A stretch of 62,553 nt of DNA from a virus (lineage: Duplodnaviria > Caudoviricetes), in the IMG/VR virus record IMGVR_UViG_3300029893_000475, positions 1 to 62,553 of that record; one strand, written 5' to 3'. Under the pieces are notes generated by a model. It had not been told where the DNA came from. It saw nothing but the letters and a program-made list of their open reading frames with translations, and did no database searches. Within the stretch, counting starts at the first letter, position 1; each line of letters starts with the position of its first letter. The translations under genes were made by a program, and so were the position numbers. This document shows, piece after piece, positions 7,205-62,553 of the stretch.

Positions 7205-7221
7205 AATTCTCCTCCATAAAA

Positions 7222-7830: not shown

Positions 7831-7833
7831 AAG

Positions 7834-8307: not shown

Positions 8308-8327
8308 ATCTATCCTTTCTAAAATAG

Positions 8328-8346
8328 AAGGGGGCAAAGCCCCCTT
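8328..8346 (-). terminator. GC-rich hairpin (terminator/attenuator) between Ubl and JAB genes
   Basis: Minus strand reads AAGGGGGC-TTT-GCCCCCTT followed by CTATTTT, starting a few nt after the Ubl stop codon. Confidence 0.65.
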
Positions 8347-17835: not shown

Positions 17836-17836
17836 G

Positions 17837-40746: not shown

Positions 40747-43700
40747 ATGATAAATATACCAAATTATATTCGTGAAAAAATCAAACAGTATAATCCAGAA
40801 TTAGATACTAGAGAAGGCTCAGTATTGAGAGATTTTCTAATAAATCCTTTGGTATCAATTTTAGAACCTTACCAGCAAGAACATTTAAAAATTTTAGAAC
40901 AGATGTCTTTAGCTGACATAAATGATCTTAATGAAGACCAAATGAATGCAATTGCTGCAACATTTTTATTAGAAAGAAGAACAGGAACCAAAGCCGTCGG
41001 ATATGTCAAATTTTATTATAACTCACCCAGAAGTATAACTATTCCTAAAGGTTTATCATTAATTAGTAATAATATCACCTTTAAAACTACTAGCGATTAT
41101 TTTATAACAAAAGCACAAATGGAATCTGATCTTTCTCAATATCCTTATTATGTTACAGAAAATATACAAGTAGTGGCTGATGATTATGGGGTTACAGGTA
41201 ACTTAGAAGCAAATTCACAATTTAAAGTTGTAGGCCAACTTTCATCTACTCCAGTAAAAATTATAAATGTAGAAGCTTTTTCTGGGGGTACAGACATTGA
41301 GACAAATTATTCATTATACAACCGTATAAAAAACACAATACACGGGAAATCTTTAGCTTCATCTACAGCCATAAAGGAAACAATAACGGATAATTTTAAT
41401 GATGTGATTGATGTTGAAGTCATTGGTGCTGGACATCCTTTGATGACAAGAGATTTAACATATTATATACAAGATGTAGAAAAATACAAATCCATTGATT
41501 TTTTATATACATATTCTGGAATGCACAACGGTGAGTATGATTCTAAACATATGGCCTTCAGTGGTAATTTTTTAGATTTGGATGAAACCTCTGATGTACA
41601 ATTTCCTTCAATAACTGGCTGGACTCATGAATTTTCCAATGATATGTACAGGGGTATATATAAATTATATGATATGAATTATGCACAGCAAGACCAATAT
41701 ACATTAATACGGGAAGATTGGGGAGATACTTTTTATGATCCTTTACTAAGTAATAATCCGGATTTGCAAATGATACTAGCTTCGGGTCAATGGCAAATAC
41801 ATGATGGGGCCCATCCAGACAACACTTTATTTTATTTAAATGAATTTGGTATTGTTAATAATAAATTAAGAATGGGAAAAACATTAAGCCCAGAAGCCGC
41901 TTCTGCAGTAGCTATCCCTCTTGCACAAATTTCAGGTATATATGAAATGCTACTTTCAGGAGAAGAACAACAGATAGAAGATGCTCAATTACAATTATTT
42001 AATTATATAAGTCCTAGTACTTTTAATAATTTATCCCCTATTATACACAAACCTATTGATCAGCATTTAGGGATAGAAATATTCTGTGAAATGATGACTA
42101 CAGATAATACTGAAGATGGAGAAATGGCTTATATTACAGTATTAAGAAATTCAGAAATTTTTCTACCGCACGATGGTTTTGGTATTGCATGGAGAAAACA
42201 ACCGGAATTTTTGTTACGTATGGATAGAAATTGGTCTAGACCTGCGATTGCACCATTAAATACAGGGGGTCAGGGAACGGTTTCTAATAATTCCAATATT
42301 TATTACACTGTATTGCCGGATTCAGCATACAAAGCAGCCGACTTGTTAAAATTCAGAGAAATATACGGATATACCCCAAATATAACTGGACCGGGTTATG
42401 TAAAAAGTCATCCTGAATTATGGAGATATAATGTTTATTTAGTTGATAATGATATTTTACAAGAAAATGTTTGGGTAGGATATGATCAGTTATGGGATCA
42501 AACTTCCGGTAAAAATCAATTTTTACAAGCAGCAAAAGTGTGGATTGAGCCAGAAATTACTTATCAATTTAAAATAAAAATTTATCAAAATATGGGAGTG
42601 GAAGCATGGATCTTTGATTTGGATAATCCACCAAATGATCCTTATGCCAATGTTAATAAAGTTATAGATAGAGGCCAAACATATCCACCCTATCTTCCAC
42701 AATCTGGAGATAAAATCCAAACTGATGCCGGATTTTATATTTTAGAAAGTTCTAGAAATCATTTTGGTATAGCTGTTTCAGAAACTAGAAACTGTGAATG
42801 GTATGTAGATAATCTATTAGTAAAAACTTTTTCTGAAACTTTTCCAATGCATTTGTTCAGAATGAAGCCCGACTTACTATATTTTGACCCGAATAAAGCC
42901 GCTCAAGTTAATTACTATGGTGTTGGTTTTGACCCAGAACAATTTTTATTAAATGGGGAAACAGGTCATAGCAAAGTAAAAGTAGGTGTTTATAATACGC
43001 AAACAGAGGCATGGGAAATTGGCGGTACAAATACTGCCACAATTAATGATACGAGAGATAAACAAAAAATAAGTGTAAATTTGAATCCTCTTTTGAACTA
43101 TTTGGACGCTGAAGGATATGTTAATATAGCAGCAACAGCTGCAAATAGTGGTGTAGATTTTCCTAATGATACTGATCATACATTAAGATCATATTACATA
43201 GAAATGAACAATGTCTTAGAAAATGGAGTTCATAGAGGAAACGCTGTAGATGTCTATGTGCATGATCCAAAAAATATAAAATTAGGAACAATTACAGTTA
43301 TAATGCCTGGTAGTACTATAAATTTAAGTACCATTCAAAATATACAACCATATATAGTTGAAATAGTAGATATTAAAGAAGGTATTTCTAAAGTAACTTT
43401 TGACAAATCTAGCTATACTATTAATAGTTTTCATAGTAGTAAATCATATTCTGATAACATCGATATATCTATAAGTTTTGATATCGAAAATATGGAAAAC
43501 ACACTGATCGAAATTACTTATTACTATTGGGCTAATGGTCCTCTTGTTAATGCTTTAATCAATGACCCTGATTTTAGATATCCTGCCTCTGATATAATGA
43601 TTAAAGCTATGCCTCCTACTATAGTGACCATAAATAAACTAGAATATTCTGGAGGACTGAATACCGAGGAAATGAAATTAAAAATAGTAAATTATTTTAA

Positions 43701-43926
43701 TACGCTGAATGATACAAGATTTGACGTTTCAGATCTCATAAATGTTATGTATGAAAATGGAGCTACATATGTAAATACAGATATGGACATATCTGTAAGA
43801 GAATACAATACTACTTATGAAATAACACAAACTTCCTTAACAGGTTCTTTTTATTCTATAGACCCGAATAATATAAGTAGATTTTTTACAAATATAAATG
43901 AATTATATGGAGTAATACAACTTTAA
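40747..43926 (+). CDS. baseplate J/gp6-like wedge protein with large central insertion
   Basis: DTREGSVLRDFLINP, RRTGTKAVGYVKFY, AFSGGTDIET...LYNRI, DVEVIGAG. Confidence 0.75.
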   Translation: MINIPNYIREKIKQYNPELDTREGSVLRDFLINPLVSILEPYQQEHLKILEQMSLADINDLNEDQMNAIAATFLLERRTGTKAVGYVKFYYNSPRSITIPKGLSLISNNITFKTTSDYFITKAQMESDLSQYPYYVTENIQVVADDYGVTGNLEANSQFKVVGQLSSTPVKIINVEAFSGGTDIETNYSLYNRIKNTIHGKSLASSTAIKETITDNFNDVIDVEVIGAGHPLMTRDLTYYIQDVEKYKSIDFLYTYSGMHNGEYDSKHMAFSGNFLDLDETSDVQFPSITGWTHEFSNDMYRGIYKLYDMNYAQQDQYTLIREDWGDTFYDPLLSNNPDLQMILASGQWQIHDGAHPDNTLFYLNEFGIVNNKLRMGKTLSPEAASAVAIPLAQISGIYEMLLSGEEQQIEDAQLQLFNYISPSTFNNLSPIIHKPIDQHLGIEIFCEMMTTDNTEDGEMAYITVLRNSEIFLPHDGFGIAWRKQPEFLLRMDRNWSRPAIAPLNTGGQGTVSNNSNIYYTVLPDSAYKAADLLKFREIYGYTPNITGPGYVKSHPELWRYNVYLVDNDILQENVWVGYDQLWDQTSGKNQFLQAAKVWIEPEITYQFKIKIYQNMGVEAWIFDLDNPPNDPYANVNKVIDRGQTYPPYLPQSGDKIQTDAGFYILESSRNHFGIAVSETRNCEWYVDNLLVKTFSETFPMHLFRMKPDLLYFDPNKAAQVNYYGVGFDPEQFLLNGETGHSKVKVGVYNTQTEAWEIGGTNTATINDTRDKQKISVNLNPLLNYLDAEGYVNIAATAANSGVDFPNDTDHTLRSYYIEMNNVLENGVHRGNAVDVYVHDPKNIKLGTITVIMPGSTINLSTIQNIQPYIVEIVDIKEGISKVTFDKSSYTINSFHSSKSYSDNIDISISFDIENMENTLIEITYYYWANGPLVNALINDPDFRYPASDIMIKAMPPTIVTINKLEYSGGLNTEEMKLKIVNYFNTLNDTRFDVSDLINVMYENGATYVNTDMDISVREYNTTYEITQTSLTGSFYSIDPNNISRFFTNINELYGVIQL

Positions 43927-45698
43927 TGTTTAGTCCAGACAATAAAACAAATTTCGAAGCCTTTTGGAACAGACTTTCTACGTTTTATAATTTTGTGCCT
44001 AAAAATGAAAAAACACTAATTGAAAATTATTGGAAACAATTATTTAATGGAATGGAAGGATTACCTTATGATCTTGCCCAAGTAACTTTGGCGGGCTATC
44101 TTGATTATTCACCGGGCTATATAGAAGACCAATATCAAGAATATGAAATTGTTTTTAATGGAAGTGATAAAAACGTTGAAATAGAAAGATATCAGACACC
44201 AGTTATAATAAGTGGTTATAATATACCCTCTTCTGACAGAACTATATATAATTATAAAATTACCGCTCTGGATTCTAATGGGGAAACTTTACCTAGTACT
44301 TCAGTTATTATAATAAGTGGTCAAAATAATTTACTTTCAAATAATAACACAATTATATGGGAAGCTGTAAGTGGTGTAAATAGTTATAATATTTACGGTC
44401 GTAGACAAAATGAATACTACTACATAACTAATACAACTAATACTTATTTTTCTGATAATGGCCTTATCCCAGTTAATAGTGGTATTACTCCACCTTCAGA
44501 GAATACAACTATAGCAAGTTATTTATATAAAATTCCTAATGATTTTATTTATTTAACTATGCCTGTATTAAGTGGTGTATATTCTAATATCACTTTAAAT
44601 GAAGGTATAGATTTTAAAATACAAAATTTACATTACCTAAAATTTTATAATAATCTAAATGTATATAGTATTCCTGGATTTAAAGAAACTTTTGTAATAC
44701 CTAAAGCTCTATTTTTATTACCTTCTCTCACTAATATCTATTTTAAAGCTTTTGGTGAATTAAATAATCCAGAAGAAGTTATAAAACAAGAAGCATATAC
44801 GCCGTATATTAATGGGTGGTTAACAGATAGCTTTAATTTTTTTGAAAAGAAAAGATATTATGCTGAGCATTTAAAATATTTGTCTCAAGGTCTTACAAAC
44901 GCTCTTTCTAAAGGACCAAATTTTAAAAATTTAACAACAGCATTTTGTTTAATATCTGGCATGCCTTTTTGCTATGAATCTGGCATAGTAAATAATATAT
45001 GGCAAGATAGTAACTATAATTATGTTTCAATTTCTGGTGGCAATACTTATCAATTTCCTTTACCATTAACAACTTCTGTCCAAATAGGAGAACCGGTTTC
45101 AAGATTTCAAATTTTAGCTTCTGGGATACATTTACATGATTACGTAAGTTCAAGTGGTATTATAGAGCAGCTTACACAAATAAACCCTGAAGAATTTTGG
45201 TATACTCTTGGAATACAACGTAGTTGTAGAACATACGGATTAAGTCATTACCAGCCTTTTGTGGATTATTATACTAATTATATATTACCAGCAGGCTTAA
45301 TAATAAACTATTTTAATTTACCTCCATATGGCTATATATGGTCTGCTAATAATTTTTATAACGGAGGCACATTAGCAACTTTTTCCGGAGTAGTTACGGA
45401 CCCTGAAAATGATATTTTGACATTTTTTTGGGAGCATATATCACCTGTTACTAATTATTTGGGTAATACAAATTTAAAATGTACTATTAATAGTCCCAAT
45501 ACAATACAAACTACCACACTTTTAACAACTCCTCCTGTTGATCGCTACTATTTATTTAGATTAAATGTAAAAGACTGTGATAATTCTACAGATATAGATA
45601 TTGAACAAAATGTACATGGTACCTATTCTTTTACTTCTTGGGGACAAACCGTTTTTATCTTAGGAGATGCAGAGTTAAGATATTTGTATTTAACGTAA
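43926..45698 (+). CDS. putative baseplate wedge / tail protein
   Basis: Follows the J-like gene; FnIII-like segment YKITALDSNGET...IIWEAVSGVNSYNIY; C-terminal Ig/PKD-like DPENDILTFFW. Confidence 0.5.
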   Translation: MFSPDNKTNFEAFWNRLSTFYNFVPKNEKTLIENYWKQLFNGMEGLPYDLAQVTLAGYLDYSPGYIEDQYQEYEIVFNGSDKNVEIERYQTPVIISGYNIPSSDRTIYNYKITALDSNGETLPSTSVIIISGQNNLLSNNNTIIWEAVSGVNSYNIYGRRQNEYYYITNTTNTYFSDNGLIPVNSGITPPSENTTIASYLYKIPNDFIYLTMPVLSGVYSNITLNEGIDFKIQNLHYLKFYNNLNVYSIPGFKETFVIPKALFLLPSLTNIYFKAFGELNNPEEVIKQEAYTPYINGWLTDSFNFFEKKRYYAEHLKYLSQGLTNALSKGPNFKNLTTAFCLISGMPFCYESGIVNNIWQDSNYNYVSISGGNTYQFPLPLTTSVQIGEPVSRFQILASGIHLHDYVSSSGIIEQLTQINPEEFWYTLGIQRSCRTYGLSHYQPFVDYYTNYILPAGLIINYFNLPPYGYIWSANNFYNGGTLATFSGVVTDPENDILTFFWEHISPVTNYLGNTNLKCTINSPNTIQTTTLLTTPPVDRYYLFRLNVKDCDNSTDIDIEQNVHGTYSFTSWGQTVFILGDAELRYLYLT

Positions 45699-45763: not shown

Positions 45764-47563
45764 ATGGCTACAATATTAACTGTTTCCGGTACGCATACAC
45801 CAAATGAAGGTCGTGTTATTTGGAATAACAATTTTACTAATTTAAATGGAGAAGTAGTAGGACTTTCTTCGTTAATATCTGCAGTTACAGGCGATATAGT
45901 AGGTACTACTGCTACTCAGACCCTTCAAAATAAAACAATCTCCTCTTTAAATAGAGGGGGTAACAACTCTATAATTATATCCAGAAAAGACCTAGAAAAT
46001 ACGTCATTTTTATTAGTAACTTCAGACTCCGGTTCTGTATCTGATATAAATGTAACTGCAGCTTCTCCATATTCACTTAAAATTTTTGGTTCTGATAGTA
46101 TAACAACTTATGTATCTTCTAATACCTTGTATATAAAAAATAAGGAAATTTGTATACTAAATGAACCTGCACAGGTATTAGGTGTAAAAGTAGCTTCAGT
46201 ATTAGGCGGCAATGTTGCACAATTTGGAGGAAATGTTATTATTAATAATTTTTTAGCTGTAGGAGCAGGGCATACAGCAGCTGCCAATGCTGAAATTCAT
46301 ATTAAAGATGCAACACCTGAACTCAGAATAGAAACTACTGGAACAGAGGCTTATTTAAATCTTACTGATTCTGTTTCAAATTTTAAATTTACAGCGGATT
46401 TAAATTCAGAAACTCTATCACTAACCCATGATAACAATAGTATTGTTTCGTTTCGAGATGACAATACAACAATAACAAGTAACGTTATTTTTTCTAAAGT
46501 AGGTGGCACGCATACTATATATGGTAATATAAATGTTTTAGGAGTTTTAACAGCCTCTGGTCTAGTTGCTACTGCTACAGACGTGGTTATAAATAATGGA
46601 CCTGTTACAATAAGTGGCGGACAATCCTACATAAAAGATAATTCTATTGATCATCAAAAATTAAAAAATTTAACTTCTGGATATTTATTAATTGGAAATA
46701 GCTCAAACATACCTACAGCAACTCCATTAACAGGAGCTATAAGTTTAACAAATACTGGCGTTACAAGTATAAATGATGGAGCAATAACTTTACCCAAATT
46801 ATCGGCACAAACATTAAATACATTCTTAATGGGAAATGATACCGGTGTTGTTGCAAAAAGTTTAAATTCAAATAGCGATGTGATATTAAGTTCAGATAGT
46901 AATACATTTACATTATCACTAAAAAGTGGAGTTATTATAGATGCAGATATTAGCCCTTCTGCTGCAATTAATATGAGTAAAACTGCTTTTACTGTGAATA
47001 TTAGTGGCCTTAGGATGAATGGTAATAGTTTAGAACTTGATTCTACTGTTAAGCCAGATATATTTTTTAGAAGTGTGCCGGTAGGAACTATAATACCTTA
47101 TGCTGGAAATAAACCAGTTTTATCAGGTTCTGTAGAAGATGAAGTTATACCTGGTTGGTTACATTGTAATGGCTGGCTTGTTAATAATTCTAAATATCCT
47201 GAATTATACTCAACTTTAGGAACAGCGTGGGGTAGCGCAGGAAAATTACCAGATTTAAGAGGAGCTTTCTTAAGAGGTGTGGATGTTGATAGAGGCTTAG
47301 ATCCAGACTATGCTACAAGAACAGGCGGAGGTACTTCTGTAAAAGTTGGTAGTTTTCAAGATGATGCATTACAAGCACATACGCACTCATTTATTGATAA
47401 TTATTACCAATTAGCGGATCAATGGGCACAGGGTGGTGGCGGTCTTAGCACAGTAAGGCCTGTAAATTCTACGTTAAATGGTGTATCCGATACTACAGAT
47501 AGTACAGGTGGATTAGAAACAAGACCAGTTAACTATGCGGTCATATATTTAATTAAATATTAA
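45764..47563 (+). CDS. tail fibre protein with C-terminal phage tail collar domain
   Basis: VPVGTIIPYAG...PGWLHCNG...YPELYSTLG...LPDLRGAFLRG...VGSFQDD..Q.HTH...ETRPVNYAVIYLIKY. Confidence 0.85.
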   Translation: MATILTVSGTHTPNEGRVIWNNNFTNLNGEVVGLSSLISAVTGDIVGTTATQTLQNKTISSLNRGGNNSIIISRKDLENTSFLLVTSDSGSVSDINVTAASPYSLKIFGSDSITTYVSSNTLYIKNKEICILNEPAQVLGVKVASVLGGNVAQFGGNVIINNFLAVGAGHTAAANAEIHIKDATPELRIETTGTEAYLNLTDSVSNFKFTADLNSETLSLTHDNNSIVSFRDDNTTITSNVIFSKVGGTHTIYGNINVLGVLTASGLVATATDVVINNGPVTISGGQSYIKDNSIDHQKLKNLTSGYLLIGNSSNIPTATPLTGAISLTNTGVTSINDGAITLPKLSAQTLNTFLMGNDTGVVAKSLNSNSDVILSSDSNTFTLSLKSGVIIDADISPSAAINMSKTAFTVNISGLRMNGNSLELDSTVKPDIFFRSVPVGTIIPYAGNKPVLSGSVEDEVIPGWLHCNGWLVNNSKYPELYSTLGTAWGSAGKLPDLRGAFLRGVDVDRGLDPDYATRTGGGTSVKVGSFQDDALQAHTHSFIDNYYQLADQWAQGGGGLSTVRPVNSTLNGVSDTTDSTGGLETRPVNYAVIYLIKY

Positions 47564-50760: not shown

Positions 50761-51819
50761 ATGGCCACATATAAAAATTATTTACGAGATAAAGCCGGTA
50801 TACCTATATTAGGGGCTCAAGCTTGTCTATATGATACTGCCGGAAATAAGGTTGATGTAGATATCACTGAAGATGATGGATTTTTCTATTTTACTAATAT
50901 AAAAACAGGGCACTATCAAGTAAGATTTTTTGGAAAAGATCTGACAGAAAAAGACTGGTTAGAAATAGATATAGTTGATGAGTTTCCCATTTCCAGTGGT
51001 ATTGTTTATGATCCTATAATATTTATTAATTACCCAACACTATCCGTAATAGAAGATGAAGCTAGAATTACTAAACAAGGAGAAATTACTACTGTTTCCT
51101 ACACTTTAACAAATTTAGCTACTTCAAAAGGAAAAATATCTTCTATATCACTTTATGTAAGAGAAGAAGGAAATTCAAAATGGCGTTTATTAGATAATTT
51201 AAATATAGATTCTAATAGCACTGCAACTGATACTAATATAACAACTATTACTGGTTTAACTGAATTAGAACTTATTGATAAACCTACTTTATTTTATTTT
51301 AAAACAGAATTTTTTAATCAAGTTGGTGATATAGCTGTTTTAAATGAACAAGTGGTAAGCCCATCTACATTTCTATTATGTTATGGAATAACTGACTTAA
51401 ATGAATATGTTGGGGTAACAAATTTAACTACAGTTAATACTGTAACAGTTCCAGGAAAATATTATCTAACAATACCCACAGATGAATTAATCTGTTCTTG
51501 GGATGATATGCGATCTTCAACTAGAACAAATTTTTTTAATGCTTTAGGACAAGCAGTTACTTTATCTGCTAAACAATTAAAAAGTATAGTAGGTTATTCT
51601 ATTTTTATGTTTATAAGTAAATTAGGCTATCCGCCTAGCTATCCTTGGCCTTATCCATCCAGCGATCAAAATGGTGAATGGTATTTTGTAAATACTGTAC
51701 CTACAAACAGGGCTATAATACGAATACCTAAAAATAAATTTGTAAAAATTTGGGTAGGGTTTAAAACCGAAAAAACAGATATTACTACAAGTATAACTAA
51801 AACAGAATTTAAATATTAA
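50761..51819 (+). CDS. virion protein with N-terminal prealbumin/SdrD-B-like domain
   Basis: GAQACLYD..G..V....T..DGFFYFTNIKTGHYQVRF pattern. Confidence 0.5.
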   Translation: MATYKNYLRDKAGIPILGAQACLYDTAGNKVDVDITEDDGFFYFTNIKTGHYQVRFFGKDLTEKDWLEIDIVDEFPISSGIVYDPIIFINYPTLSVIEDEARITKQGEITTVSYTLTNLATSKGKISSISLYVREEGNSKWRLLDNLNIDSNSTATDTNITTITGLTELELIDKPTLFYFKTEFFNQVGDIAVLNEQVVSPSTFLLCYGITDLNEYVGVTNLTTVNTVTVPGKYYLTIPTDELICSWDDMRSSTRTNFFNALGQAVTLSAKQLKSIVGYSIFMFISKLGYPPSYPWPYPSSDQNGEWYFVNTVPTNRAIIRIPKNKFVKIWVGFKTEKTDITTSITKTEFKY

Positions 51820-54800
51820 TGGCTATTTATTATGTAGATACAAATAATCCTGTAGCAAATGACTCAAATTCTGGGACAGAGGTGAGTCCTTGGAAAACTA
51901 TACAAAGAGCATTAAATACTATTGTAGCTGGAGATACTGTCTATATTAAAGCTGGAACATATAATCAAGCGGCATTAATAATGACTAATTCTGGTACAAG
52001 CGGGAATCCTATAAATATAAGTAATTATAACAATGACAAAGTTATTGTAGATTTTTCGTCAGGTGTAGGTACTGGTTGGAATTGGAATGGTTATAAAAAT
52101 AACATAATATTAAATGGGCTTGAAATTAGAAATTCTAAAGGTAAAGGAGTATTAATACAGGGCAGCAATAATAAAATAACGAATTGTGTAATTTATAATT
52201 GTGGTGTTGTAAACAAAACTCCGGGAATTTCTTTAGAAGGAGGATCTTATTGCACTATAGCTTCTAATGAGATTTATAATTCTGGTACAGACGGAATTTA
52301 TATTGAAAACAGAGCTACTGATGGAGCGGCTGGTTTTGCAGATAATAATACTATAGCATCAAATAAAATCCACAATAATGGTGGGAACGGAATCTCTATA
52401 ATTCCAAATTCAACAATGTTACAAATTATTTTATATAATAACACTATAAAACAAAATAAAATATATGCAAATAGTAATCATGGGATATATTGTAGAGCCA
52501 ATGAAAATACAGATATTTTTTCAAATTTAATTTACGATAATTTAAAAAATGGTATTGAATTTGGTTGGAGAGATTCTAATGATGGATTACTTAGTGGTAA
52601 TATCAATATTATAAATAATACACTTACATTTAATGATATAGGTATAGTAAATAGAAATTTATGGTTTTTAATTATCAAAAATAATATATTAGCATACAAC
52701 ACACAATTCCAGATTTTTTACGATGGTTATGGTACAGAACCTTATGTATCTAATTATAATTTATATTATACTGAAAATGAATATTTAATAGCTACAGAAG
52801 GTGGGGCTAAAGTTTTTCCTAATTTAAATGAATTTTCTGATAGATATAATCTAGAAAGAAACGGCTTAGAAGGAATCCCTTACTTTAAAAATATTTCTCA
52901 AGATGATTATAGATTATCTCTTATTTCACCGTGTATAGACAACGGAGAAACACAAGCTTCCAAATTTTTAAAGGATCTTGATGATACTTCCAGGCCTTTG
53001 GGCAATTTTTGGGATATAGGTGCATATGAATATATATTTCCACAAGTAGGTAATTATTATGTGGATAATGCTTCTACAGGCAATAATACTGGTCTTTCAT
53101 GGGCAAACGCCTGGAAAGATTTTTCATTTGTTCAATGGGATTTATTAAAACCTGGATCAACCCTGCAAATTTCTGGAGGTACTAATTCTAAAACCTACAA
53201 ACTTGAAAATACTATACAAGTTGTAGCTTCAGGAATTATAATACAAAAAAGCTCTGATGTTGGGCATAACGGTGAAGCCATTTTATCTTGTGAAAATTTT
53301 GTAGGGAATGCAATTCTTATAAGTGGAATGAACAATGTCACAATTGATGGTATCACAATACTTGATACCTCTACTACTACAATAAGTGAAGAAGGGGCTA
53401 TTAAGTGCATAAATTCTTTACAACCTACAATAAAAAATTGTAAAATTAAAGTAAATAGAGGTGCTGCTGTAAGTTTTGAAAATGTAACTTTAGGACTTAT
53501 TGATAACATTAATTTGACTACAAAAACTTATTCTACCTATCTAACAATATTAGCAAAAGTTTCTTCTGGAACTTCTAACACTATTCAAAATTGTACCGCA
53601 ACTATTTCTAATTATTTTCCTTTTGTAACTTTAAAAGCAATTATAGCTAATTTTGAGTCTAATATAACAATACAAAAAAATAGAATTTACTTTAATACAG
53701 GGGCTACAGAAATTGCTCCTAAATATGGAATATACTGTGAAAATATCAATGGCTATGCAAATATATATAACAATTTGATATATATCAATGATATAGCAAT
53801 TGGAGCAGGGATTAGTTTTCAAACTACTAATATTAATTATTTAGGAACAGCAAAGATATTAAATAATACTGTATATATCGAAAAGCAAAGCTCTTTAGCT
53901 GTAGAATTAAAAGATACTGTTAGTAATAATACAGATAGAATGTCTATAATTGCTAATAATATATTTTACTTAGCTGTATCTGGCTTTGTAAGCTATTATC
54001 CTAACACCTTTTTTAGTAACGATGCCTGTGATTTTAATATTTATTATAATACAGCTGGAGATGTAATAACACATTCAAGTAGTACCGAGTCTTTCGTGGC
54101 TTGGCAATTAAAGGGGTATGATACTAATGGTTATAATGGTATTCCGACATTTTTAAATAATTTTAAATTAGCTGGTAATTCTTTAGGTATAGATGCTGGA
54201 TATAAATACGCGGAAATAGAAGAAGATATCGATGGTGTAAAAAGACCGCAGGGAAATAATGTAGATATTGGTGCATACGAATCAAGGAAAGGATATTATG
54301 TAGATAACGAGGTTATAAGTGGTACAAAAGATGGAACCTCTTGGGAAACTGCTTGGCAAAGTTTTTCTGAAATAGATTGGAATCTGTTCCAGCCGGGGGA
54401 TTCTTTATATATCTCTGGGGGGCCGGAAGGTTATTCTAAAATATATTATGAACAGTTAAATGTAAATGCGTCTGGTATAGAAAATCTTCCTATTTATATT
54501 TTACCTGGTGAAGATTTAGGACATAATGGTAATGTAATTATTGATGGATTAAATCTGATAAATAAACACGGTCTATTTATAGATGGATATGATAATATAA
54601 TTATCAGTGGTTTAACATTCAGAAATTCCTACAGTGCAGAAATACTATCTAAAAGAGCTGATAATATACGTATTTATAATTGCAATATACTATTTTATGG
54701 CAGAGGCATAGATCTAAGATACGGTTCAAATTGTGTTATAAGTGGGTGTACACTAAATTCGCCTCTTTTTATAGGTGCTGAAACTGATGGAATATATGTA

Positions 54801-57110
54801 CAAGATTCTGTAAACTCTATTATAGAAGATAATTATATAGCTGTATTTAATTCTTACGTAGATGGTGAAAATGATTGTATACAAATTTTTAGAAATAATA
54901 ATTCTATTATAAGAAATAATTATTGTATACAACATACAAATAAGCTAGAAAAATCAAGAGGAATTTATGGCAGTAATTGTAATGGAAATATTTATATTTA
55001 TAATAATGTAGTTAATATGAACGATACAATCAGTGTAGGTATAGGTTATGAAAATTTGATTGATGGTACTGCAGATGTATACATATTAAATAATACTGTT
55101 TTTGGAAACAAAATATACAATGGAATATCCGTAACTGGTGTACCAGATCCCAAAATAAAAAATAATATTATCAAAAATACAGTAGGTCTTTATGTTTTAA
55201 ATTTAGCTGATTGGAATGGTAATACAGCAAATATAGATTATAATCTTTATCATAATACCTTAAATTCATATTTAATTAATTTTGAAGGCGATCTTATTGA
55301 TTTTAGTTTTTGGCAAGGGTACTTGTTTGATGAACATAGCTATAATTCGGATCCAAAATTTGTAAGCGAAAAAAATGGTAATTTACAACTTCAGGATATT
55401 TCTCCTGCTAAAAATGCGGGCACCTCTTTATCTGGCATATTTACTTATGATATCAATTATATAACTAGACCTCATGATGCAGCATGGGATATAGGAGCTT
55501 ATGAAGGGCCAGGATTTGATATAACAAAGCCTAGACTAACTAAAGCAGAGATTTTAAATGCCAATTCAGTAAAGCTAACTTTTTCTGAAAAATTGGTAAA
55601 AAATGAAGCAGAAAAACCAGAAAATTATAGTATTTTAAATATTGGTGAAATTGGTAATGCTGCCCCTGTTGTAATTTCAGCTACATATGATGATTTTTCA
55701 TCCATAGTGTATTTATACACGAGTAATCATTCATATAGTACTTTTACGGTTAAAGTAGAAAATGTTAAAGATTTAGCTGGGAATACTATAGATCTAAACT
55801 ATAATACTTATAATTATTACTATTATTATATTGACATTGTCAAACCAAAACTTTTATCTGCAAAATTGCTGGAAGATACAATTGTTAAATTAACTTTTGA
55901 TGAAGCTTTAAATATCAACACGGCACAAGATTCTAGAAACTATTCAATAACAAATAAACAAGTTTTTGCAGCTATTTATAATCCTGCAGATTTTTCTGTA
56001 GTTTTATTAACTAGTACACATACTTATGGTACATATACAGTTACAGTAAATAATATCACAGATTTAGCTGGGAATTTTATAGATCCAGATTATAATTATG
56101 CCATTTATAATAAAATATTTATTGATACAGAAGGTCCTAAATTAATAGACGCTTTACCAAATATAAGTGGTACTTCAGTTGATGTGTTTTTTTCAGAGTC
56201 TATACTAAGTTCTGGTCTAGAAAATATAAACAACTATTCTATATCTGGTATCAATATATCCGGATTATTTAATTTTAGTCAATGGGATGACAAGGTAAGA
56301 CTTTTTGTTGATCCTCCTTTTGTAGATCAGTCTTATTATACATTAGTTGTTTCATCCGGCATAAAAGATATTTCTGGAAATCCAGTAAATCCAGCATTTG
56401 ATACAATAACTTTCTTATATACAAGTTCTCCAGAAATTGTTTCAGTTTCTGGTGTTAGTGTTTCTTTAATTGATGTAAAGTTTTCACATAAAATGAATGT
56501 TGAAACTTTGTCTGATCCTGTTAATTATATTATAACTGGGCCTGGTGGAGCTGATGTACAAGATATTATTATCAATAATGAATATTATATTACTTTAAAA
56601 ACTTCAAAACATACTGCTGCTGGAGTATATACTTTAATGATAAATTATGCATATGATATTTATGGTAATGCTTTAGATGCTCCTAATAATCAGGGTAATT
56701 ATGAAATTTTTGGAGATTTTACTCCACCCAGTTTAATTACAGCAACTTTGTTATCTGCAAATAATTTGAAACTTGAATTTAATGAAAGATTAGATGTATT
56801 AGAATCACAATATACAGATTTATATCAAATACAAAAATTAACAGTTAGTGGTTATTTGGCTATATATTCTGTAACTATATCGGATAATGCTGCTTACTTA
56901 ATAACAGCCCCGCATGCATATTTAAATGAATATAAAATTACTGTTAGTGGAATTCAAGATTTATATGGCAACATATTAACCACACCAGAATATATAAACT
57001 ATACTTATACTGTATCTGGTTTAGATTTAACTTTATTTTCTCCTGTTGGAGGAGAAACATTTTATAATGGACAATATAAACCGATAACTTGGAATTTAGA
57101 TGAAAAATAA
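51819..57110 (+). CDS. giant adhesin/depolymerase-like protein: three right-handed beta-helix modules plus about five Ig-like domains
   Basis: Three modules each start YYVD...G.S/E...W and end D.D...RP.G...DIGAYE (at ~53030, ~54281, ~55505), followed by repeats P.L..A......V.L.F.E...NYSI...V.L.TS.H...Y...V..I.D..GN. Confidence 0.75.
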   Translation: MAIYYVDTNNPVANDSNSGTEVSPWKTIQRALNTIVAGDTVYIKAGTYNQAALIMTNSGTSGNPINISNYNNDKVIVDFSSGVGTGWNWNGYKNNIILNGLEIRNSKGKGVLIQGSNNKITNCVIYNCGVVNKTPGISLEGGSYCTIASNEIYNSGTDGIYIENRATDGAAGFADNNTIASNKIHNNGGNGISIIPNSTMLQIILYNNTIKQNKIYANSNHGIYCRANENTDIFSNLIYDNLKNGIEFGWRDSNDGLLSGNINIINNTLTFNDIGIVNRNLWFLIIKNNILAYNTQFQIFYDGYGTEPYVSNYNLYYTENEYLIATEGGAKVFPNLNEFSDRYNLERNGLEGIPYFKNISQDDYRLSLISPCIDNGETQASKFLKDLDDTSRPLGNFWDIGAYEYIFPQVGNYYVDNASTGNNTGLSWANAWKDFSFVQWDLLKPGSTLQISGGTNSKTYKLENTIQVVASGIIIQKSSDVGHNGEAILSCENFVGNAILISGMNNVTIDGITILDTSTTTISEEGAIKCINSLQPTIKNCKIKVNRGAAVSFENVTLGLIDNINLTTKTYSTYLTILAKVSSGTSNTIQNCTATISNYFPFVTLKAIIANFESNITIQKNRIYFNTGATEIAPKYGIYCENINGYANIYNNLIYINDIAIGAGISFQTTNINYLGTAKILNNTVYIEKQSSLAVELKDTVSNNTDRMSIIANNIFYLAVSGFVSYYPNTFFSNDACDFNIYYNTAGDVITHSSSTESFVAWQLKGYDTNGYNGIPTFLNNFKLAGNSLGIDAGYKYAEIEEDIDGVKRPQGNNVDIGAYESRKGYYVDNEVISGTKDGTSWETAWQSFSEIDWNLFQPGDSLYISGGPEGYSKIYYEQLNVNASGIENLPIYILPGEDLGHNGNVIIDGLNLINKHGLFIDGYDNIIISGLTFRNSYSAEILSKRADNIRIYNCNILFYGRGIDLRYGSNCVISGCTLNSPLFIGAETDGIYVQDSVNSIIEDNYIAVFNSYVDGENDCIQIFRNNNSIIRNNYCIQHTNKLEKSRGIYGSNCNGNIYIYNNVVNMNDTISVGIGYENLIDGTADVYILNNTVFGNKIYNGISVTGVPDPKIKNNIIKNTVGLYVLNLADWNGNTANIDYNLYHNTLNSYLINFEGDLIDFSFWQGYLFDEHSYNSDPKFVSEKNGNLQLQDISPAKNAGTSLSGIFTYDINYITRPHDAAWDIGAYEGPGFDITKPRLTKAEILNANSVKLTFSEKLVKNEAEKPENYSILNIGEIGNAAPVVISATYDDFSSIVYLYTSNHSYSTFTVKVENVKDLAGNTIDLNYNTYNYYYYYIDIVKPKLLSAKLLEDTIVKLTFDEALNINTAQDSRNYSITNKQVFAAIYNPADFSVVLLTSTHTYGTYTVTVNNITDLAGNFIDPDYNYAIYNKIFIDTEGPKLIDALPNISGTSVDVFFSESILSSGLENINNYSISGINISGLFNFSQWDDKVRLFVDPPFVDQSYYTLVVSSGIKDISGNPVNPAFDTITFLYTSSPEIVSVSGVSVSLIDVKFSHKMNVETLSDPVNYIITGPGGADVQDIIINNEYYITLKTSKHTAAGVYTLMINYAYDIYGNALDAPNNQGNYEIFGDFTPPSLITATLLSANNLKLEFNERLDVLESQYTDLYQIQKLTVSGYLAIYSVTISDNAAYLITAPHAYLNEYKITVSGIQDLYGNILTTPEYINYTYTVSGLDLTLFSPVGGETFYNGQYKPITWNLDEK

Positions 57111-57951: not shown

Positions 57952-59763
57952 ATGGACTATTTAAAATTCAAAGAAATAACACAAAAATATAGAGAGGGCG
58001 ATACCTCTGAAGATATTATAGATTATATTAAGAATTTCTATAAAGAAAGAAAGGATGTTTGGTTAGATGACATTAATAATCCTTTGATTCAAGCAAGATT
58101 TAATTGGTTAAAAAATAAAATCACTAAGTATCAATATAATATATCTATATTAGACGTTGGAAGTTGGTCAGGTACTATAGCTAATAGTATATATTCCCTC
58201 GGTTATACGAATATTGATTGTTTAGAAATTTGTACGGCTGCATGTAAATTAGGCAAGGAAACTTTTCCACATCTGAATTTTTTAAATGAAGATGTGTATA
58301 CGTTCAAAACAGAAAAAAAGTATGATATTATTATATTATCAGAAATACTTGAACATTTACATAATCCTATAAATATTATAAAAAAATATCAAAATATGCT
58401 AACTGATAATGGAATATTATTAATAACCATACCAACACCACAATCTGTGTTCAAAACTAACTCTAGTGAACATATAACATTTTTAAAACTAGAAGAATTA
58501 GAAAAATTTGGTTTAGTTGATTATATACGTTATGACGATGTTTGGAGTTGGTATGCTGTTTCTATATCTCCGGAATCAAAATATAAAAAACATCTTACTT
58601 GGCGATTTCATTTACTAGGTTTTCCGAACTATAAAATAGGTTGGGAAAAAGCTCCTAACAATCCATTTAATACCAAACTTATTTATCTTGCTAAAATGCT
58701 AAAAGATCTAGGTCATGAAGTGTTGTGCTACGGTGTGGAGGGATCTGATACTGAGTATATTGATAAATTTATACCAGTAGTATCTAATACAACCTTTGAA
58801 AAATTATATGGAAATAGAGATTATAATGCACTGGATAATTTACAAGAGGAAGCAGGACCTGCTTTTGACGAATTTAATCGAAACAGTATAAAAGAGATCG
58901 AAAAAAATATCCAAAATCCCGGTAAAGAATTTTTGATAAATTTTATGGGTTATATTTATAAACCTATTACTGATCATTTTAAAGACAAATTAATTTCATT
59001 AGAACCAGGTATTGGCCATAATGGCAGTTATTTACAAAACAGAGTATTTGAATCTTATGCTTGGCAAAACCATGTTTATGGAAAAGAGTGTCAACCTAGA
59101 CAAAGCTATTTTCCAAATATGTATGATACAGTTATACCTGCTTATTTTGATCCTAAGGATTATCCGTTTGTAAATAATAAATCCGATTACTATGTATATA
59201 TAGGACGTATTATTTGGGGCAAAGGTGTTTCTGTGGCCATAGATTTAACAAGAGAGTTAAATTCCAAGTTAATAGTTATTGGTGGAGGTAATATTAAAGA
59301 TGTTTTACCTCCTGATTATAATCAAAATTTAGATCATGTAATACAAACCGGAGTATTGTCTAAAAAAGATAAGGTTAAATATTTAGCTAATGCTAAAGGT
59401 TTAATATATTTTAGTTTATACGTAGAACCTTTTGGTCATGCTCCTATAGAAGCTATGCTGTGCGGTACTCCAGTAATAACAAGTGATTTTGGTGCATTTA
59501 CAGAAACAGTTATTAATGGTATAACAGGTTATAGAGTTAATACATTTAATGAATTATATTGGGCTGCCAAATATTTAGAAAAATTGAATCCTACTAAGAT
59601 CAGGGAGTATGCTATAAATAATTATGGATTAGATAATATAAAGTACAAATATCAAGAATATTTTACAAAGTTATATAATTTATATACTGGAAACGGGTGG
59701 TATTATTTAGATAAAACTTTTCCTATAAATTTAAATCATTTAACCAAATTTATTCCATGTTAA
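57952..59763 (+). CDS. SAM methyltransferase - GT4 (GT-B) glycosyltransferase fusion
   Basis: N-terminal ILDVGSWSG and YDIIILSEILEHL; C-terminal YIGRIIWGKG and EPFGHAPIEAMLCGTPVI. Confidence 0.85.
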   Translation: MDYLKFKEITQKYREGDTSEDIIDYIKNFYKERKDVWLDDINNPLIQARFNWLKNKITKYQYNISILDVGSWSGTIANSIYSLGYTNIDCLEICTAACKLGKETFPHLNFLNEDVYTFKTEKKYDIIILSEILEHLHNPINIIKKYQNMLTDNGILLITIPTPQSVFKTNSSEHITFLKLEELEKFGLVDYIRYDDVWSWYAVSISPESKYKKHLTWRFHLLGFPNYKIGWEKAPNNPFNTKLIYLAKMLKDLGHEVLCYGVEGSDTEYIDKFIPVVSNTTFEKLYGNRDYNALDNLQEEAGPAFDEFNRNSIKEIEKNIQNPGKEFLINFMGYIYKPITDHFKDKLISLEPGIGHNGSYLQNRVFESYAWQNHVYGKECQPRQSYFPNMYDTVIPAYFDPKDYPFVNNKSDYYVYIGRIIWGKGVSVAIDLTRELNSKLIVIGGGNIKDVLPPDYNQNLDHVIQTGVLSKKDKVKYLANAKGLIYFSLYVEPFGHAPIEAMLCGTPVITSDFGAFTETVINGITGYRVNTFNELYWAAKYLEKLNPTKIREYAINNYGLDNIKYKYQEYFTKLYNLYTGNGWYYLDKTFPINLNHLTKFIPC

Positions 59764-61817
59764 ATAAAATAGCTATATTAATAATAACTTATAAAACTTA
59801 TGAATTAACTGAAAAATTGGTTAATCAACTAAATTATTATAATTCTGATTTATATAATTTGACCATAGTTGACAATAGTGAAAATAATTTAGGATTCGAC
59901 CAAACAGTTATTAAATGGATAAACGAAAAAAAATCAGAAGATTATTTAGGATATTGGGTAATTAATAATGATATAGAACTAGATCTAAATCAAAATTATT
60001 TACAAAAATTTATTGAATATATAAAATTGGATGATAATATTGGTCTCATTTCAACAAAAATAACGGATGAGCTTCCTTATATAATACCACAAAAATTCAA
60101 TTTTAGTGTTCCGATGTTAGTTAAATATGTTGATTTTCAAAGTAGTGTTATTACCAGACATTTAATTAATAAACTTGATTTTGACAATGCTTTTTATTTT
60201 TTTGGTGGCCTGGATTTAGATGTTACAACGTGTGCATTAGAAAACAATTTAGATATTGTAATAGATTATAGATATACAGTACATCATAAATTTCATCAAT
60301 CATTTAACAAAAAAGAGCCTTTAGAAGATTTGTTTTTACATTTAACCAAATATAATATCAATATTGATAAAGGTTTAACTTTTGATGAAATTAATGGTTT
60401 ATTAATCTCAGATTGTTTAGTTAAAAGATATCCAAAACTTTTGGCTAGGCCACAAAACACAATATTAGAAAAATGTACGAGTTATAAACAAGATTTAATG
60501 AATGCACATGTATTAAATTATGCTGAACAACGATTTATTAAAGGACTTAGTTTTTACAATAATGCTGCTTATGAAGCATCAAAACAATATTTTAAACAAG
60601 CTTTTTGTGCTGGATATACAGAAGCTGTTTCTTATTTAATAGGTGCTGCTAATTTTACTTCTAATTTTACAGATATAGCAAGCTTTCTAAATACATACGT
60701 TGATCGTAATTCATATGAAATTGAAAGACAATCCTATGAGTATGTGAAAACTCAGGAAGAACATTTTAATATTACATACAATAATCAAAAAACTTATGTA
60801 TTTTATGTAAAACCAGACGCCGGACATCAATGGGACCCTCTACATACAGATGTAGGAGTAGGAGGTTCAGAAATTGCTGTAATTAATTTAAGTAGAGAGT
60901 TAGCAAATTTGGGTCAGAAAGTTTTTGTTTTTAATAATTGCAAACAGCCGGGAACTTATAATAATGTAGTTTGGGATAATATAGAAAATTTTGATGTTTT
61001 TGAAAAAAATACTCATATTGATATTTTAATAGTGTCTAGACTACCTGAATTTCGTTTTATACAGCCTAATGCAAAAGTTTATTTTTGGGCGCATGATTTA
61101 AATTATTATGAAAGAATAACGCCATCAAATTGGCAATATTTTGACAAATTTTTAGTATTATCTAGATATCATTATAGGTTTTTTTCAAATGCCTATCCAT
61201 GGATACCGAAAGAAAATTTTGAAATTTTACCTAATGGTGTTGATTTGAAAAGATTTGAATCTACAGTTTGCAGAAATAACAAAAAATTAATATATTCAAG
61301 TAATCCTGATAGGGGTTTAGTTATTTTATTTGATATATTTGAAGAGCTGCATAAATGGGACCCTGAGTTAGAATTACATGTATTTGGCTATTACCCCGAT
61401 AATGTAAGAAAACATCCTACTTATTGGAGAGAATTACCTGGAGTTATTTATAGAGGTTATCATAACCAGGAAGATTTAGCAAAAGAATATTTATCTAGCA
61501 AGTTATGGTTATATCCATGTACATGGCTTGAAACATATTGTATTACAGCTTTAGAAGCTCAAGCAGCTGGAACTCCGGCTGTAGTTAGTGATTGGGGACC
61601 TTTAAGAGATAGAGTGGGTAATGCCGGAATTGTTATAGAAGGTTTTGAAAAAAATTTAATACATAAAAATAAATTTATAGAAGCTGTAAAATTATTATTA
61701 ACCGATGATAAATTGTGGAACGAATTTTCAGTAAATGGTAGAAATCAAGCTATGTTTTCAACTTGGAAAAATTCTGCTTTAAGATTAATAGAAATAAGCA
61801 ATAAATGCCTATATTAA
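59757..61817 (+). CDS. GT2-like plus GT4 bifunctional glycosyltransferase
   Basis: N-terminal IVDNS..NLGF, INNDIE (GT-A); C-terminal GGSEIAV, PNGVD, YSSNPDRGL, ETYCITALEAQAAGTP (GT-B). Confidence 0.82.
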   Translation: MLNKIAILIITYKTYELTEKLVNQLNYYNSDLYNLTIVDNSENNLGFDQTVIKWINEKKSEDYLGYWVINNDIELDLNQNYLQKFIEYIKLDDNIGLISTKITDELPYIIPQKFNFSVPMLVKYVDFQSSVITRHLINKLDFDNAFYFFGGLDLDVTTCALENNLDIVIDYRYTVHHKFHQSFNKKEPLEDLFLHLTKYNINIDKGLTFDEINGLLISDCLVKRYPKLLARPQNTILEKCTSYKQDLMNAHVLNYAEQRFIKGLSFYNNAAYEASKQYFKQAFCAGYTEAVSYLIGAANFTSNFTDIASFLNTYVDRNSYEIERQSYEYVKTQEEHFNITYNNQKTYVFYVKPDAGHQWDPLHTDVGVGGSEIAVINLSRELANLGQKVFVFNNCKQPGTYNNVVWDNIENFDVFEKNTHIDILIVSRLPEFRFIQPNAKVYFWAHDLNYYERITPSNWQYFDKFLVLSRYHYRFFSNAYPWIPKENFEILPNGVDLKRFESTVCRNNKKLIYSSNPDRGLVILFDIFEELHKWDPELELHVFGYYPDNVRKHPTYWRELPGVIYRGYHNQEDLAKEYLSSKLWLYPCTWLETYCITALEAQAAGTPAVVSDWGPLRDRVGNAGIVIEGFEKNLIHKNKFIEAVKLLLTDDKLWNEFSVNGRNQAMFSTWKNSALRLIEISNKCLY

Positions 61818-62553
61818 AAAAACAAGAAGAAGGTTTCTTTTTAAAAAGAAAATTACCTAGTGAGGGTACTACAGGATACTGTGGACCTGTAGGGGTATGT
61901 GGTCCTGTAGGTTTTTGTGGAACAAGAGGTTGGTGTGGACCACAAGGTTATTGTGGTCCATCCGGTCTATGCGGTTTACAAGGTCTTTGTGGTCCTCAAG
62001 GATATTGTGGTCCTCAAGGATATTGTGGTCCATCAGGCATGTGTGGACTACAGGGACCTACAGGATTTTGTGGGCCTACTGGCTATTGTGGTCCCACAGG
62101 TTTCTGTGGTCCATCGGGTCCGTGCGGTTTGCAAGGTGTATCTGGTTTTTGTGGTCCAGCAGGTTATTGTGGTCCGATAGGATTCTGTGGTCCATCGGGT
62201 CCGTGCGGTTTGCAAGGTGTATCTGGTTTTTGTGGTCCAGCAGGTTATTGTGGTCCGATAGGCTTCTGTGGTCCATCAGGTCCATGCGGTTTGCAAGGTG
62301 TATCTGGTTTTTGTGGTCCAGCAGGTTATTGTGGTCCGATAGGCTTCTGTGGTCCATCGGGTCCGTGCGGTTTGCAAGGTGTATCTGGTTTTTGCGGTCT
62401 AGCAGGTTATTGTGGTCCGATAGGCTTCTGTGGTCCATCGGGTCCATGCGGTTTGCAAGGTGTATCTGGTTTTTGTGGTCCAGCAGGTTATTGTGGTCCG
62501 ATAGGCTTCTGTGGTCCATCAGGTCCATGCGGTTTGCAAGGTGTATCTGGTTT
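61805..62553 (+). CDS. cysteine-rich collagen-like protein, 3'-truncated by the window end (absent from the ORF track)
   Basis: ATG at 61805 overlaps the end of the GT gene; MPILKKQEEGFFLKRKLPSE is followed by uninterrupted Gly-X-Y from 61865 to the window end (GTT GYC GPV GVC GPV GFC ...), with no stop. Confidence 0.88.
   Translation, partial: MPILKKQEEGFFLKRKLPSEGTTGYCGPVGVCGPVGFCGTRGWCGPQGYCGPSGLCGLQGLCGPQGYCGPQGYCGPSGMCGLQGPTGFCGPTGYCGPTGFCGPSGPCGLQGVSGFCGPAGYCGPIGFCGPSGPCGLQGVSGFCGPAGYCGPIGFCGPSGPCGLQGVSGFCGPAGYCGPIGFCGPSGPCGLQGVSGFCGLAGYCGPIGFCGPSGPCGLQGVSGFCGPAGYCGPIGFCGPSGPCGLQGVSG
62099..62553 (+). repeat. 81-bp tandem repeat, 5 full copies plus 1 partial
   Basis: Units start at 62099, 62180, 62261, 62342, 62423 and 62504, encoding GFCGPSGPCGLQGVSGFCGPAGYCGPI with mostly synonymous differences. 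Confidence 0.92.

Follow-up and report, generated by a model that had tools for sequence, protein, structure and literature searches.

A cysteine-rich collagen-like shaft of a predicted phage tail fibre and its conserved pair of glycosyltransferase genes

Results

We analyzed the Caudoviricetes virus record IMGVR_UViG_3300029893_000475, a linear record of 62,553 bases that is about 30% complete according to CheckV; the whole of this stretch is referred to as the window. At its right end an open reading frame (ORF) encodes a collagen-like protein with Cys at the Y position of nearly half of its Gly-X-Y triplets. From its position and its homologs we assign this ORF as the predicted anchor and shaft of a phage tail fibre, with the receptor-binding end beyond the contig. 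Tail fibres of this class are ordinary; what is new is a rare Cys-at-Y collagen shaft that is kept under selection and is coupled to a distinctive pair of glycosyltransferase (GT) genes. Our best explanation, to which as a whole we assign a probability of roughly 50%, is that the ORF represents the first part of a tail-fibre gene from an uncultured phage with a large, AT-rich genome and that the fibre would be self-decorating, i.e. its collagen shaft would be glycosylated by the co-encoded GTs, by analogy with SgtA and BclA3.

Anatomy of the collagen-like ORF

The gene and the tandem array within it are located as follows.

61805–62553 (ORF 61805–62551), plus strand: 5' part of the tail-fibre gene with ATG start, a head of 20 amino acids and a collagen shaft, open at the contig end
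62066–62553, plus strand: tandem array of 81-bp (27-residue) units within the shaft, 6.0 copies, 95% match

The shaft consists of 76 Gly-X-Y triplets without a break and follows directly on the 20-residue head. Gly-X-Cys makes up 34 of the 76 triplets. All 34 Cys residues inside the repeat are at Y and none is at X; the head is free of Cys. The residue preceding Cys is Phe (13), Tyr (10), Pro (6), Leu (2), Val (1), Trp (1) or Met (1), and consecutive Cys residues are spaced by two triplets (27 times) or three triplets (6 times). Pro is found 31 times at X and never at Y. Ser occupies the Y position 14 times and Thr 4 times out of 76, with three GPT triplets among the 76. The sole charged residue of the repeat is one Arg, as Lys, Asp and Glu are absent. 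The initial annotation of this DNA had reported at least 76 unbroken triplets, about 34 of them Gly-X-Cys, mostly Phe or Tyr at X and one charged residue, and every count was correct.

The ORF matches the Pfam family Collagen (PF01391) with an E-value of 2.1e-32 and a score of 111 bits (cut-off 27.2). None of the usual collagen stabilizers, namely Pro or hydroxyproline at Y, Lys-Glu/Asp pairs or a Thr-rich Y position, is found in the shaft. Nor does its Cys pattern correspond to that of cystine knots and minicollagens, where Cys is clustered at the helix ends or outside the Gly-X-Y repeat. The six 81-bp units of the array differ at 12 columns, nine of which are third codon positions.

Tail-fibre identity

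The collagen ORF matches tail-fibre and "collagen like minor tail" PHROGs. It stands at the end of a baseplate/fibre module on the same strand, which contains the following genes upstream of the GT pair.

40747–43926, plus strand: baseplate wedge-like gene (phrog_6, E = 1.4e-23)
43926–45698, plus strand: PKD-domain protein, tail module
45764–47563, plus strand: tail-collar-fibre-like gene (phrog_523, E = 2.1e-27)
51819–57110, plus strand: right-handed β-helix protein of 1763 amino acids with an Ig-like domain (Big_5), a tailspike-like fibre; also precedes the GT pair in L008, L159 and L161
57100–57933, plus strand: protein of 277 amino acids without a family match; at the same place in L008, L159 and L161

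Two full-length proteins, P0001 (992 amino acids, 135 triplets, 55 Cys) and P0049 (741 amino acids, 29 triplets, 12 Cys), have an N-terminus that is nearly letter-identical to that of the window ORF. Outside its collagen part, residues 471–734 of P0049 match the tail-fibre family phrog_5668 (E = 6.5e-26) as well as long-tail-fibre distal-subunit families. A Peptidase_S74 chaperone was detected in P0049 (E = 3.3e-14) and not in P0001. The domain following the collagen part in both proteins has only three members in the database, and no relatives of the two proteins were found among the viral contigs searched. The position in the tail module, the PHROG matches and the tail-fibre and S74 domains of the orthologue P0049 are the basis for the assignment as a tail fibre, an identity that the initial annotation had missed.

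Reading frame and assembly

A repeat of this kind might be an artefact, either because an ordinary collagen gene is read on the wrong strand or in the wrong frame, or because the repeat is mis-assembled. We scanned viral contigs with a DNA pattern encoding (Cys-Gly-Pro-x-Gly-x)2-Cys-Gly-Pro and obtained at least 119 matching stretches. Among the 119 matches listed, 103 turned out to be the antisense of a Gln/Thr collagen gene, with the longest open frame on the other strand, and only three (L023, L056 and L066) were true Cys-at-Y collagens. Runs of Gly-Pro-Cys are the antisense shadow of Gly-Pro-Gln/His and therefore a trap when mining for "(Gly-Pro-Cys)n" proteins. L016, L124, L024, L037, L027, L013 and others were dropped as candidate Cys-collagens because their Gly-Pro-Cys runs are antisense readings.

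The window ORF itself is not such a shadow, since its opposite-strand frames show no Gly periodicity, its sense frame has an ATG and a conserved, non-collagen head, and its orthologues extend in frame into the globular domains of tail fibres. The substitutions also speak for the sense frame. Over 75 ungapped codons shared with the L008 orthologue, the differences at codon positions 1, 2 and 3 number 12, 8 and 35; counted by codon, 27 differences are synonymous and 12 non-synonymous. All nine Cys and all 20 Gly residues are kept in this region, although two of the Cys codons change between TGT and TGC. The Cys-rich frame is under purifying selection.

Regarding the assembly, contigs assembled from the runs of three studies cover positions 60300 to 62115, 62151 and 62152, respectively, with 0 differences; one of these runs may represent the source sample. 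The first approximately 100 codons of the ORF, which are already Cys-rich, are thus reproduced exactly in other assemblies. All three reassembled contigs end where the 81-bp array begins, and the record itself ends within the array. As no other assembly bridges the array, its copy number rests on the present one. An extension of the contig into the C-terminal domain, as suggested in the initial annotation, failed: Logan contigs from four runs either stop at 62115–62152 or yield repeat pieces of at most 111 bases. For this reason the C-terminal part of the protein is taken from the orthologues. Considering the third-position substitutions, the lack of Gly periodicity on the opposite strand and the identical reassembly of 60300–62115, we regard the chance of an artefact as negligible, despite the many antisense shadows and the unbridged array.

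Conservation of cysteine at the Y position

In order to assess how unusual the shaft is, we fetched 265 collagen-like proteins, taken from the top 120 matches of a word-indexed search and the top 150 of the 57,867 matches of an exhaustive one. Cys at Y is absent from 245 of them, in agreement with the statement in the initial annotation that Cys is rare in collagens. Pooled over the 265 proteins, Cys occupies Y in 231 of 46,641 triplets, and 216 of these 231 come from six Cys-rich proteins with 28–41% Cys at Y (P0049, P0001, P0088, P0010, P0002 and P0046). At the X position of the fetched Cys-rich collagens Cys is found in no more than trace numbers. In the literature searched, a natural collagen that has Cys within its triplets is not described; the supplementary triplet tables of PMC11923368 may contain Cys frequencies that are relevant to this rarity.

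In the window ORF, L008, L159, L160, L164 and P0001, Cys is at Y in 40–50% of the triplets and never at X. What precedes Cys differs among the relatives (Asp, Ser, Asn, Glu, Ala, Phe, Tyr and others). Since X varies while Cys is constant, we consider Cys to be the conserved feature and the aromatic residues at X to be local to the window. The combination of aromatic X and Cys highlighted in the initial annotation is therefore conserved in its Cys part; its aromatic part is particular to the window, as the relatives use Asp, Ser, Asn, Glu and others. The shaft of P0198, a fibre whose N-terminal motif is similar, is an ordinary one with Gln at 60 and Thr at 59 of 140 Y positions and no Cys.

A Cys-at-Y collagen pair independent of the window type was observed on L056, a viral contig of 7.5 kb (4712–5983 and 6747–7553). 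These two genes are of the Gly-Ser-Cys and Gly-Gln-Cys types, with Cys in 47 of 134 and 17 of 47 triplets, and the contig carries no GT homologue. Within the shafts of the L161 tail and of L164 (3444–3836), Cys-Gly-Pro-Cys and Cys-Gly-x-Cys spacings occur; the likeness of the former to the thioredoxin active-site motif is probably a coincidence.

Gene order

The two genes preceding the fibre gene encode multi-domain GTs.

57952–59763, plus strand: fusion of an S-adenosylmethionine (SAM)-dependent methyltransferase (residues 61–181) with a GT4 domain (residues 408–555), 603 amino acids; 7-nt overlap with the next GT gene
59757–61817, plus strand: GT-A/TPR-like/GT4 enzyme, 686 amino acids; its stop overlaps the start of the fibre gene by 13 nt

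The overlaps of 7 nt between the GT genes and of 13 nt with the fibre gene are as described in the initial annotation, which had proposed translational coupling. L008 has the identical gene order with the same 7- and 13-nt overlaps. We further searched the metagenome contigs of the Joint Genome Institute (JGI) with an alignment of 13 sequences of the 686-residue protein and obtained eight loci. In seven of the eight, a Cys-rich collagen ORF directly follows the GT gene, abutting or overlapping its stop codon and running off the contig.

L159: 112 triplets, 53 Cys at Y
L160: 109 triplets, 48 Cys at Y
L161: short collagen tail, Cys-rich
L162: short collagen tail, Cys-rich
L163: 18 triplets, 8 Cys at Y; unrelated N-terminus
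L164: 36 triplets, 18 Cys at Y
L165: 296 triplets, 96 Cys at Y; GT only 42% identical

Across the loci the GT is 42–68% identical to that of the window, and the N-termini of the fibres differ. The conserved module thus consists of the GT4 enzyme with or without the methyltransferase, the GT-A/TPR-like/GT4 enzyme and the Cys-collagen fibre, in this order, and is kept despite far sequence drift. Domain shuffling is seen in L163–L165, where the first GT is without the methyltransferase part (398–401 amino acids); in L165 the second enzyme is extended at its N-terminus to 959 amino acids. In line with the coupling, the Cys-free P0198 gene (L129) directly follows an ORF of 1621 amino acids and has no GT gene in that position, nor does its contig of 20.5 kb carry a GT homologue. 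The GT link and the comparison with BclA made in the initial annotation have become stronger than proposed, with the order kept down to 42% GT identity and with sugar genes in the same window.

The eighth locus, L166, is of the same type as G002 and L158 and carries the GT pair in a replication module. Phages of the G002 type nevertheless encode a Cys-collagen fibre at another genomic location, namely P0002/L003 with 201 triplets and 58 Cys. Among 185,579 prokaryote species, represented by one genome each, a GT of the 686-residue type occurs once, on a phage-like contig. This contig, L158, encodes P0010, is 121 kb long and is filed under a metagenome-assembled genome of Candidatus Nanoarchaeia; it carries primase, PolA, DNA methylases, the GT pair and the Cys-collagen fibre and is probably a phage contig that was binned with the Candidatus Nanoarchaeia genome.

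Glycosyltransferases and sugar cluster

The 686-residue protein comprises a GT-A/GT2-like part (residues ~1–253), a TPR-like helical linker (~254–321) and a GT-B/GT4 domain (345–686). The atlas look-alikes of the N-terminal part all belong to GT2 families (best score 0.96, structural template modelling (TM) scores of 0.55–0.58), and the columns of D39, D72 and D153xD155 are invariant in the alignment. Residues 254–321 give weak TPR matches with an E-value of about 0.04. The C-terminal domain has a GT-B fold with a Z-score of 29.2 to PimA, as judged from a model with a mean predicted local distance difference test (pLDDT) value of 84.5. Fold searches with the full-length model listed matches from the GT-B domain only, and profile searches of the PDB with two alignments yielded GT-B and weak TPR matches only. 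Such a TPR-like module, though weak, would point to a protein as the substrate. In the eight sugar-related proteins no 19-mer exceeds a mean hydropathy of 1.23; since a strongly hydrophobic 19-mer is missing, the enzymes look soluble.

A ten-gene cluster elsewhere in the window is a possible supply of donor sugars for the fibre GTs.

14955–22274, minus strand: sugar cluster with eight sugar-related genes and two genes of no assigned family

Its members are a weak GT2, RmlD-like and RmlC-like enzymes, an NAD epimerase/4,6-dehydratase (RmlB-like), a UDP-GlcNAc (N-acetylglucosamine) 2-epimerase (E = 5.5e-72), a GT2, a rhamnosyl-O-methyltransferase/CmcI-like enzyme and another GT2, so that two of the GT2 genes are clear and one is weak. 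A UDP-GlcNAc 2-epimerase is also found at the cut end of the L008 contig.

Phage and host

The window has a G+C content of 26–35%. No close cultured relative was found, the nearest PolA of a cultured phage being at most 28% identical. A tRNA gene was not found in the window. Genes for sigma-70, peptide deformylase and RecU are present and suggest a host among the bacteria. Metagenome runs containing at least half of the stretch are labelled subsurface and rock; runs with a small share of it, from coal and groundwater, are left out of this habitat assignment. No RNA run was listed among those containing the stretch.

Several other genes of the window were noted.

6174–6965, minus strand: sigma-factor-like gene
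7222–8337, minus strand: ThiF/E1-like (E = 6.2e-13) and JAB/MPN deubiquitinase-like (E = 1.5e-11) genes, adjacent, in the early/replication block
25605–27092, minus strand: CCA-adding/poly(A) polymerase-family enzyme with HD domain
27435–27962, minus strand: peptide deformylase
37462–38184, plus strand: second sigma-factor-like gene

One of the two sigma-factor-like genes is a full sigma-70 (regions 1.2–4); the other has region 3 only and lies within the structural module. The ThiF/E1-like and JAB/MPN genes may form a phage pair for ubiquitin-like conjugation or deconjugation.

Discussion

Proposed mechanism

Based on the anatomy of the ORF, its orthologues and the gene order we propose the following model. 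The N-terminal motif of about 20 residues, which also occurs in further fibres, would attach the protein to the tail and would be followed by a homotrimeric collagen-type shaft. A receptor-binding end and a self-cleaving S74 chaperone are expected beyond the contig, as in full-length orthologues. From the geometry of a triple helix, three exposed thiols would encircle the shaft at intervals of about six residues. In the cytoplasm, the soluble methyltransferase-GT4 and GT-A/TPR-like/GT4 enzymes would decorate the shaft with a short glycan, probably methylated and deoxyhexose-containing. These sugars may take the place of hydroxyproline, salt bridges or glycosylated Thr in stabilizing the helix. 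According to PMC11923368, salt-bridge triplets are the usual stabilizer across life and (Gly-Pro-Thr)10 is helical solely with glycosylated Thr. With this precedent, and given a shaft without the usual stabilizers, a sugar-dependent stability is plausible.

As to the acceptor, the conserved Cys would be the most consistent candidate (S-linked glycan), with Ser/Thr as the conservative alternative (O-linked glycan). Ser and Thr together fill 18 of 76 Y positions in the window ORF; in L008 they account for 10 of 115, and in L164 for no more than 4 of 36. It is because they are few and variable, and Cys constant, that we consider Cys a candidate. That the Y-position Cys residues accept the sugar from the co-encoded enzymes, which would make the shaft an S-glycosylated collagen, nevertheless appears rather unlikely to us. 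We keep this option because Cys is the sole nucleophile conserved along all shafts and because of the GT-A/helical-repeat front half of the second enzyme. The initial annotation had suggested an S- or O-glycosylation scaffold; the coupling to GTs was borne out by seven of eight loci and L008, and both Cys and Ser/Thr are candidate acceptors.

A number of observations weigh against a glycosylated shaft or against its S-linked form. The GT-A part of the 686-residue protein stays below the Pfam, NCBIfam and PDB sequence and profile thresholds, and neither sequence nor profile comparison detects a tie to known S-glycosyltransferases. In G002-type phages the GT pair lies about 45 kb away from the fibre gene, in the company of genes for primase, polymerase, deaminase and DNA methylase, so that the two need not be neighbours and the enzymes may have another target; G002 (63% complete) is also without both sugar-cluster families tested. 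GT4 homologues with 30–39% identity to residues ~306–574 of the 603-residue protein are found near Cys-free collagen genes in 13 of the 119 loci listed (L017, L022, L040, L070, L077, L094, L095, L102, L103, L105, L113, L115 and L123), on the same strand and at a distance of 228–6786 nt (at most 350 nt in 6 of the 13). These neighbouring collagen genes are large, Cys-free and Gln/Thr-rich, and their contigs have 37–43% G+C. As judged from these loci, the pairing of GT and collagen is a broader viral theme for which Cys is not needed; the link is not Cys-specific, and O-glycosylation would be sufficient. Finally, all GT-linked loci may represent a single phage lineage, so that the seven of eight are not independent events, and the pairing count leaves out the Cys-collagen families of L056, P0088 and P0046, for which there is little or no flanking sequence.

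Alternative explanations

The Cys residues could also serve as free surface thiols, forming disulfides between fibres or particles or binding metal or metal sulfide, with the rod responding to redox state or metals and the sugar being placed on Ser/Thr or on other proteins. In collagen geometry, Cys at Y only disfavours disulfides within one helix and leaves the thiols exposed, and the strict restriction of Cys to Y is shared across the relatives. Synthetic triple-helical peptides with terminal Cys are described as oxidizing into polymers, and Cys as aiding surface adhesion (PMC3491313). The subsurface and rock samples, if reducing, would be places where thiols could persist. Against this, virions are assembled in a reducing cytoplasm, the thioredoxin, DsbA and sulfhydryl-oxidase families were unmatched by Pfam in the 47 window ORFs scanned (a window of ~30% of the genome), and the co-travel of the GT pair with the Cys-collagen gene is left unexplained. 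We consider this explanation possible but doubtful. Alternatively, the GTs might have nothing to do with the fibre and act on the envelope of the host, on DNA or on a different virion protein, being its neighbours only through a shared mobile late-gene cassette. The GT pair of G002, L166 and L158, located in a replication module at a large distance from the fibre and next to DNA methyltransferase-like and deaminase genes, fits such a role, as does the filing of the matched PHROG GT families under "moron, auxiliary metabolic gene and host takeover". However, the abutting or overlapping order of GT and Cys-collagen in seven of eight loci and L008 persists down to 42% identity, related GT4 genes also stand beside other viral collagen genes, the weak TPR-like module would favour a protein substrate, and the enzymes look soluble. 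On balance, unrelated GTs appear quite improbable.

More fundamentally, the repeat might adopt a different glycine-rich structure, e.g. a polyglycine-II helix bundle held together by Cys. The absence of Lys, Asp and Glu and of Pro at Y would be compatible with such a fold. So would the aromatic residues at X, which destabilize the triple helix in host-guest studies. Yet the 76 triplets are unbroken and have Pro at X in 31 cases, the match to Pfam Collagen is strong, P0198 has an ordinary Gln/Thr collagen at the same position, and collagen shafts are common in phage fibres, so that a non-collagen fold is very unlikely.

Significance

Cys is generally considered to be avoided within collagen helices, and a natural family that has it in nearly half of all Y positions and keeps it under selection adds a new case to the study of what stabilizes a triple helix. 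For materials, the regular spacing of the thiols makes such a rod attractive as a scaffold. The three-gene unit is compact enough to address whether a phage can glycosylate its fibres itself and whether this occurs via sulfur. If the sugars were indeed thio-linked, S-glycosylation, so far a matter of a few small bacteriocins, would reach a large structural protein, the first to be built on thio-linked sugars; this would represent a third way to stabilize a triple helix, besides hydroxyproline and charge pairs or glycosylated Thr, and would provide a fibre coat resistant to stripping by glycosidases. Otherwise, the family remains an example of a fibre-tailoring module in phages, and the warning about antisense shadows holds.

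Comparison with known systems

With the collagen-like phage tail fibres represented in the PHROGs and in E. coli O157 prophage (PMC3368898), the window ORF shares the Gly-X-Y shaft and the location in the tail module, and its orthologues have a C-terminal globular part and S74. Unlike those fibres, its shaft has Cys in about 45% of the Y positions, is nearly uncharged and is tied to a GT pair.

An analogous gene arrangement is found in C. difficile, where sgtA lies immediately upstream of bclA3 and SgtA puts GlcNAc on Thr of the collagen repeats (PMC7157674). In the window, too, a GT gene immediately precedes the collagen-like gene, and the SgtA sugar is carried by a Y-position residue. The glycan of Bacillus anthracis BclA is described as rhamnose-rich with a methylated terminal sugar (PMC6222408), and the window encodes Rml-like and rhamnosyl-O-methyltransferase-like enzymes. 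The differences are that the acceptors in BclA and BclA3 are Thr residues in Gly-Pro-Thr, whereas the window shaft has Thr at 4 and Cys at 34 of 76 Y positions, and that a phage fibre with a predicted glycan is compared with a spore nap. The GTs of the window are multi-domain fusions other than SgtA; no tie is detectable, SgtA not having been compared directly. A virus encoding both collagen-like proteins and enzymes to glycosylate them is known from Mimivirus, with its L230 hydroxylase/glycosyltransferase (cited in PMC8968730). In contrast to the hydroxylysine route of L230, the window shaft has no Lys, and no 2-oxoglutarate-dependent oxygenase was found among the 47 window ORFs scanned.

The S-glycosyltransferases of glycocins are GT2/GT-A enzymes with helical repeat domains, an architecture that resembles the GT-A and TPR-like front half of the 686-residue protein. 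Enzymes of the SunS, ThuS, PalS and ThgS types transfer sugar onto a Cys thiol (PMC6405829, PMC12457901). Their substrate is a small hairpin peptide with one or two Cys residues, unlike the long repetitive fibre encoded next to the window enzymes. Cys is also used by the cystine-knot collagens, i.e. type III and the fibril-associated collagens with interrupted triple helices (FACITs; PMC11923368), and by cnidarian minicollagens (PMC2289959). In these collagens, however, it occurs in short clusters at or outside the helix ends, whereas the Cys residues of the window shaft are located at Y inside the triplets and follow a two-triplet period throughout.

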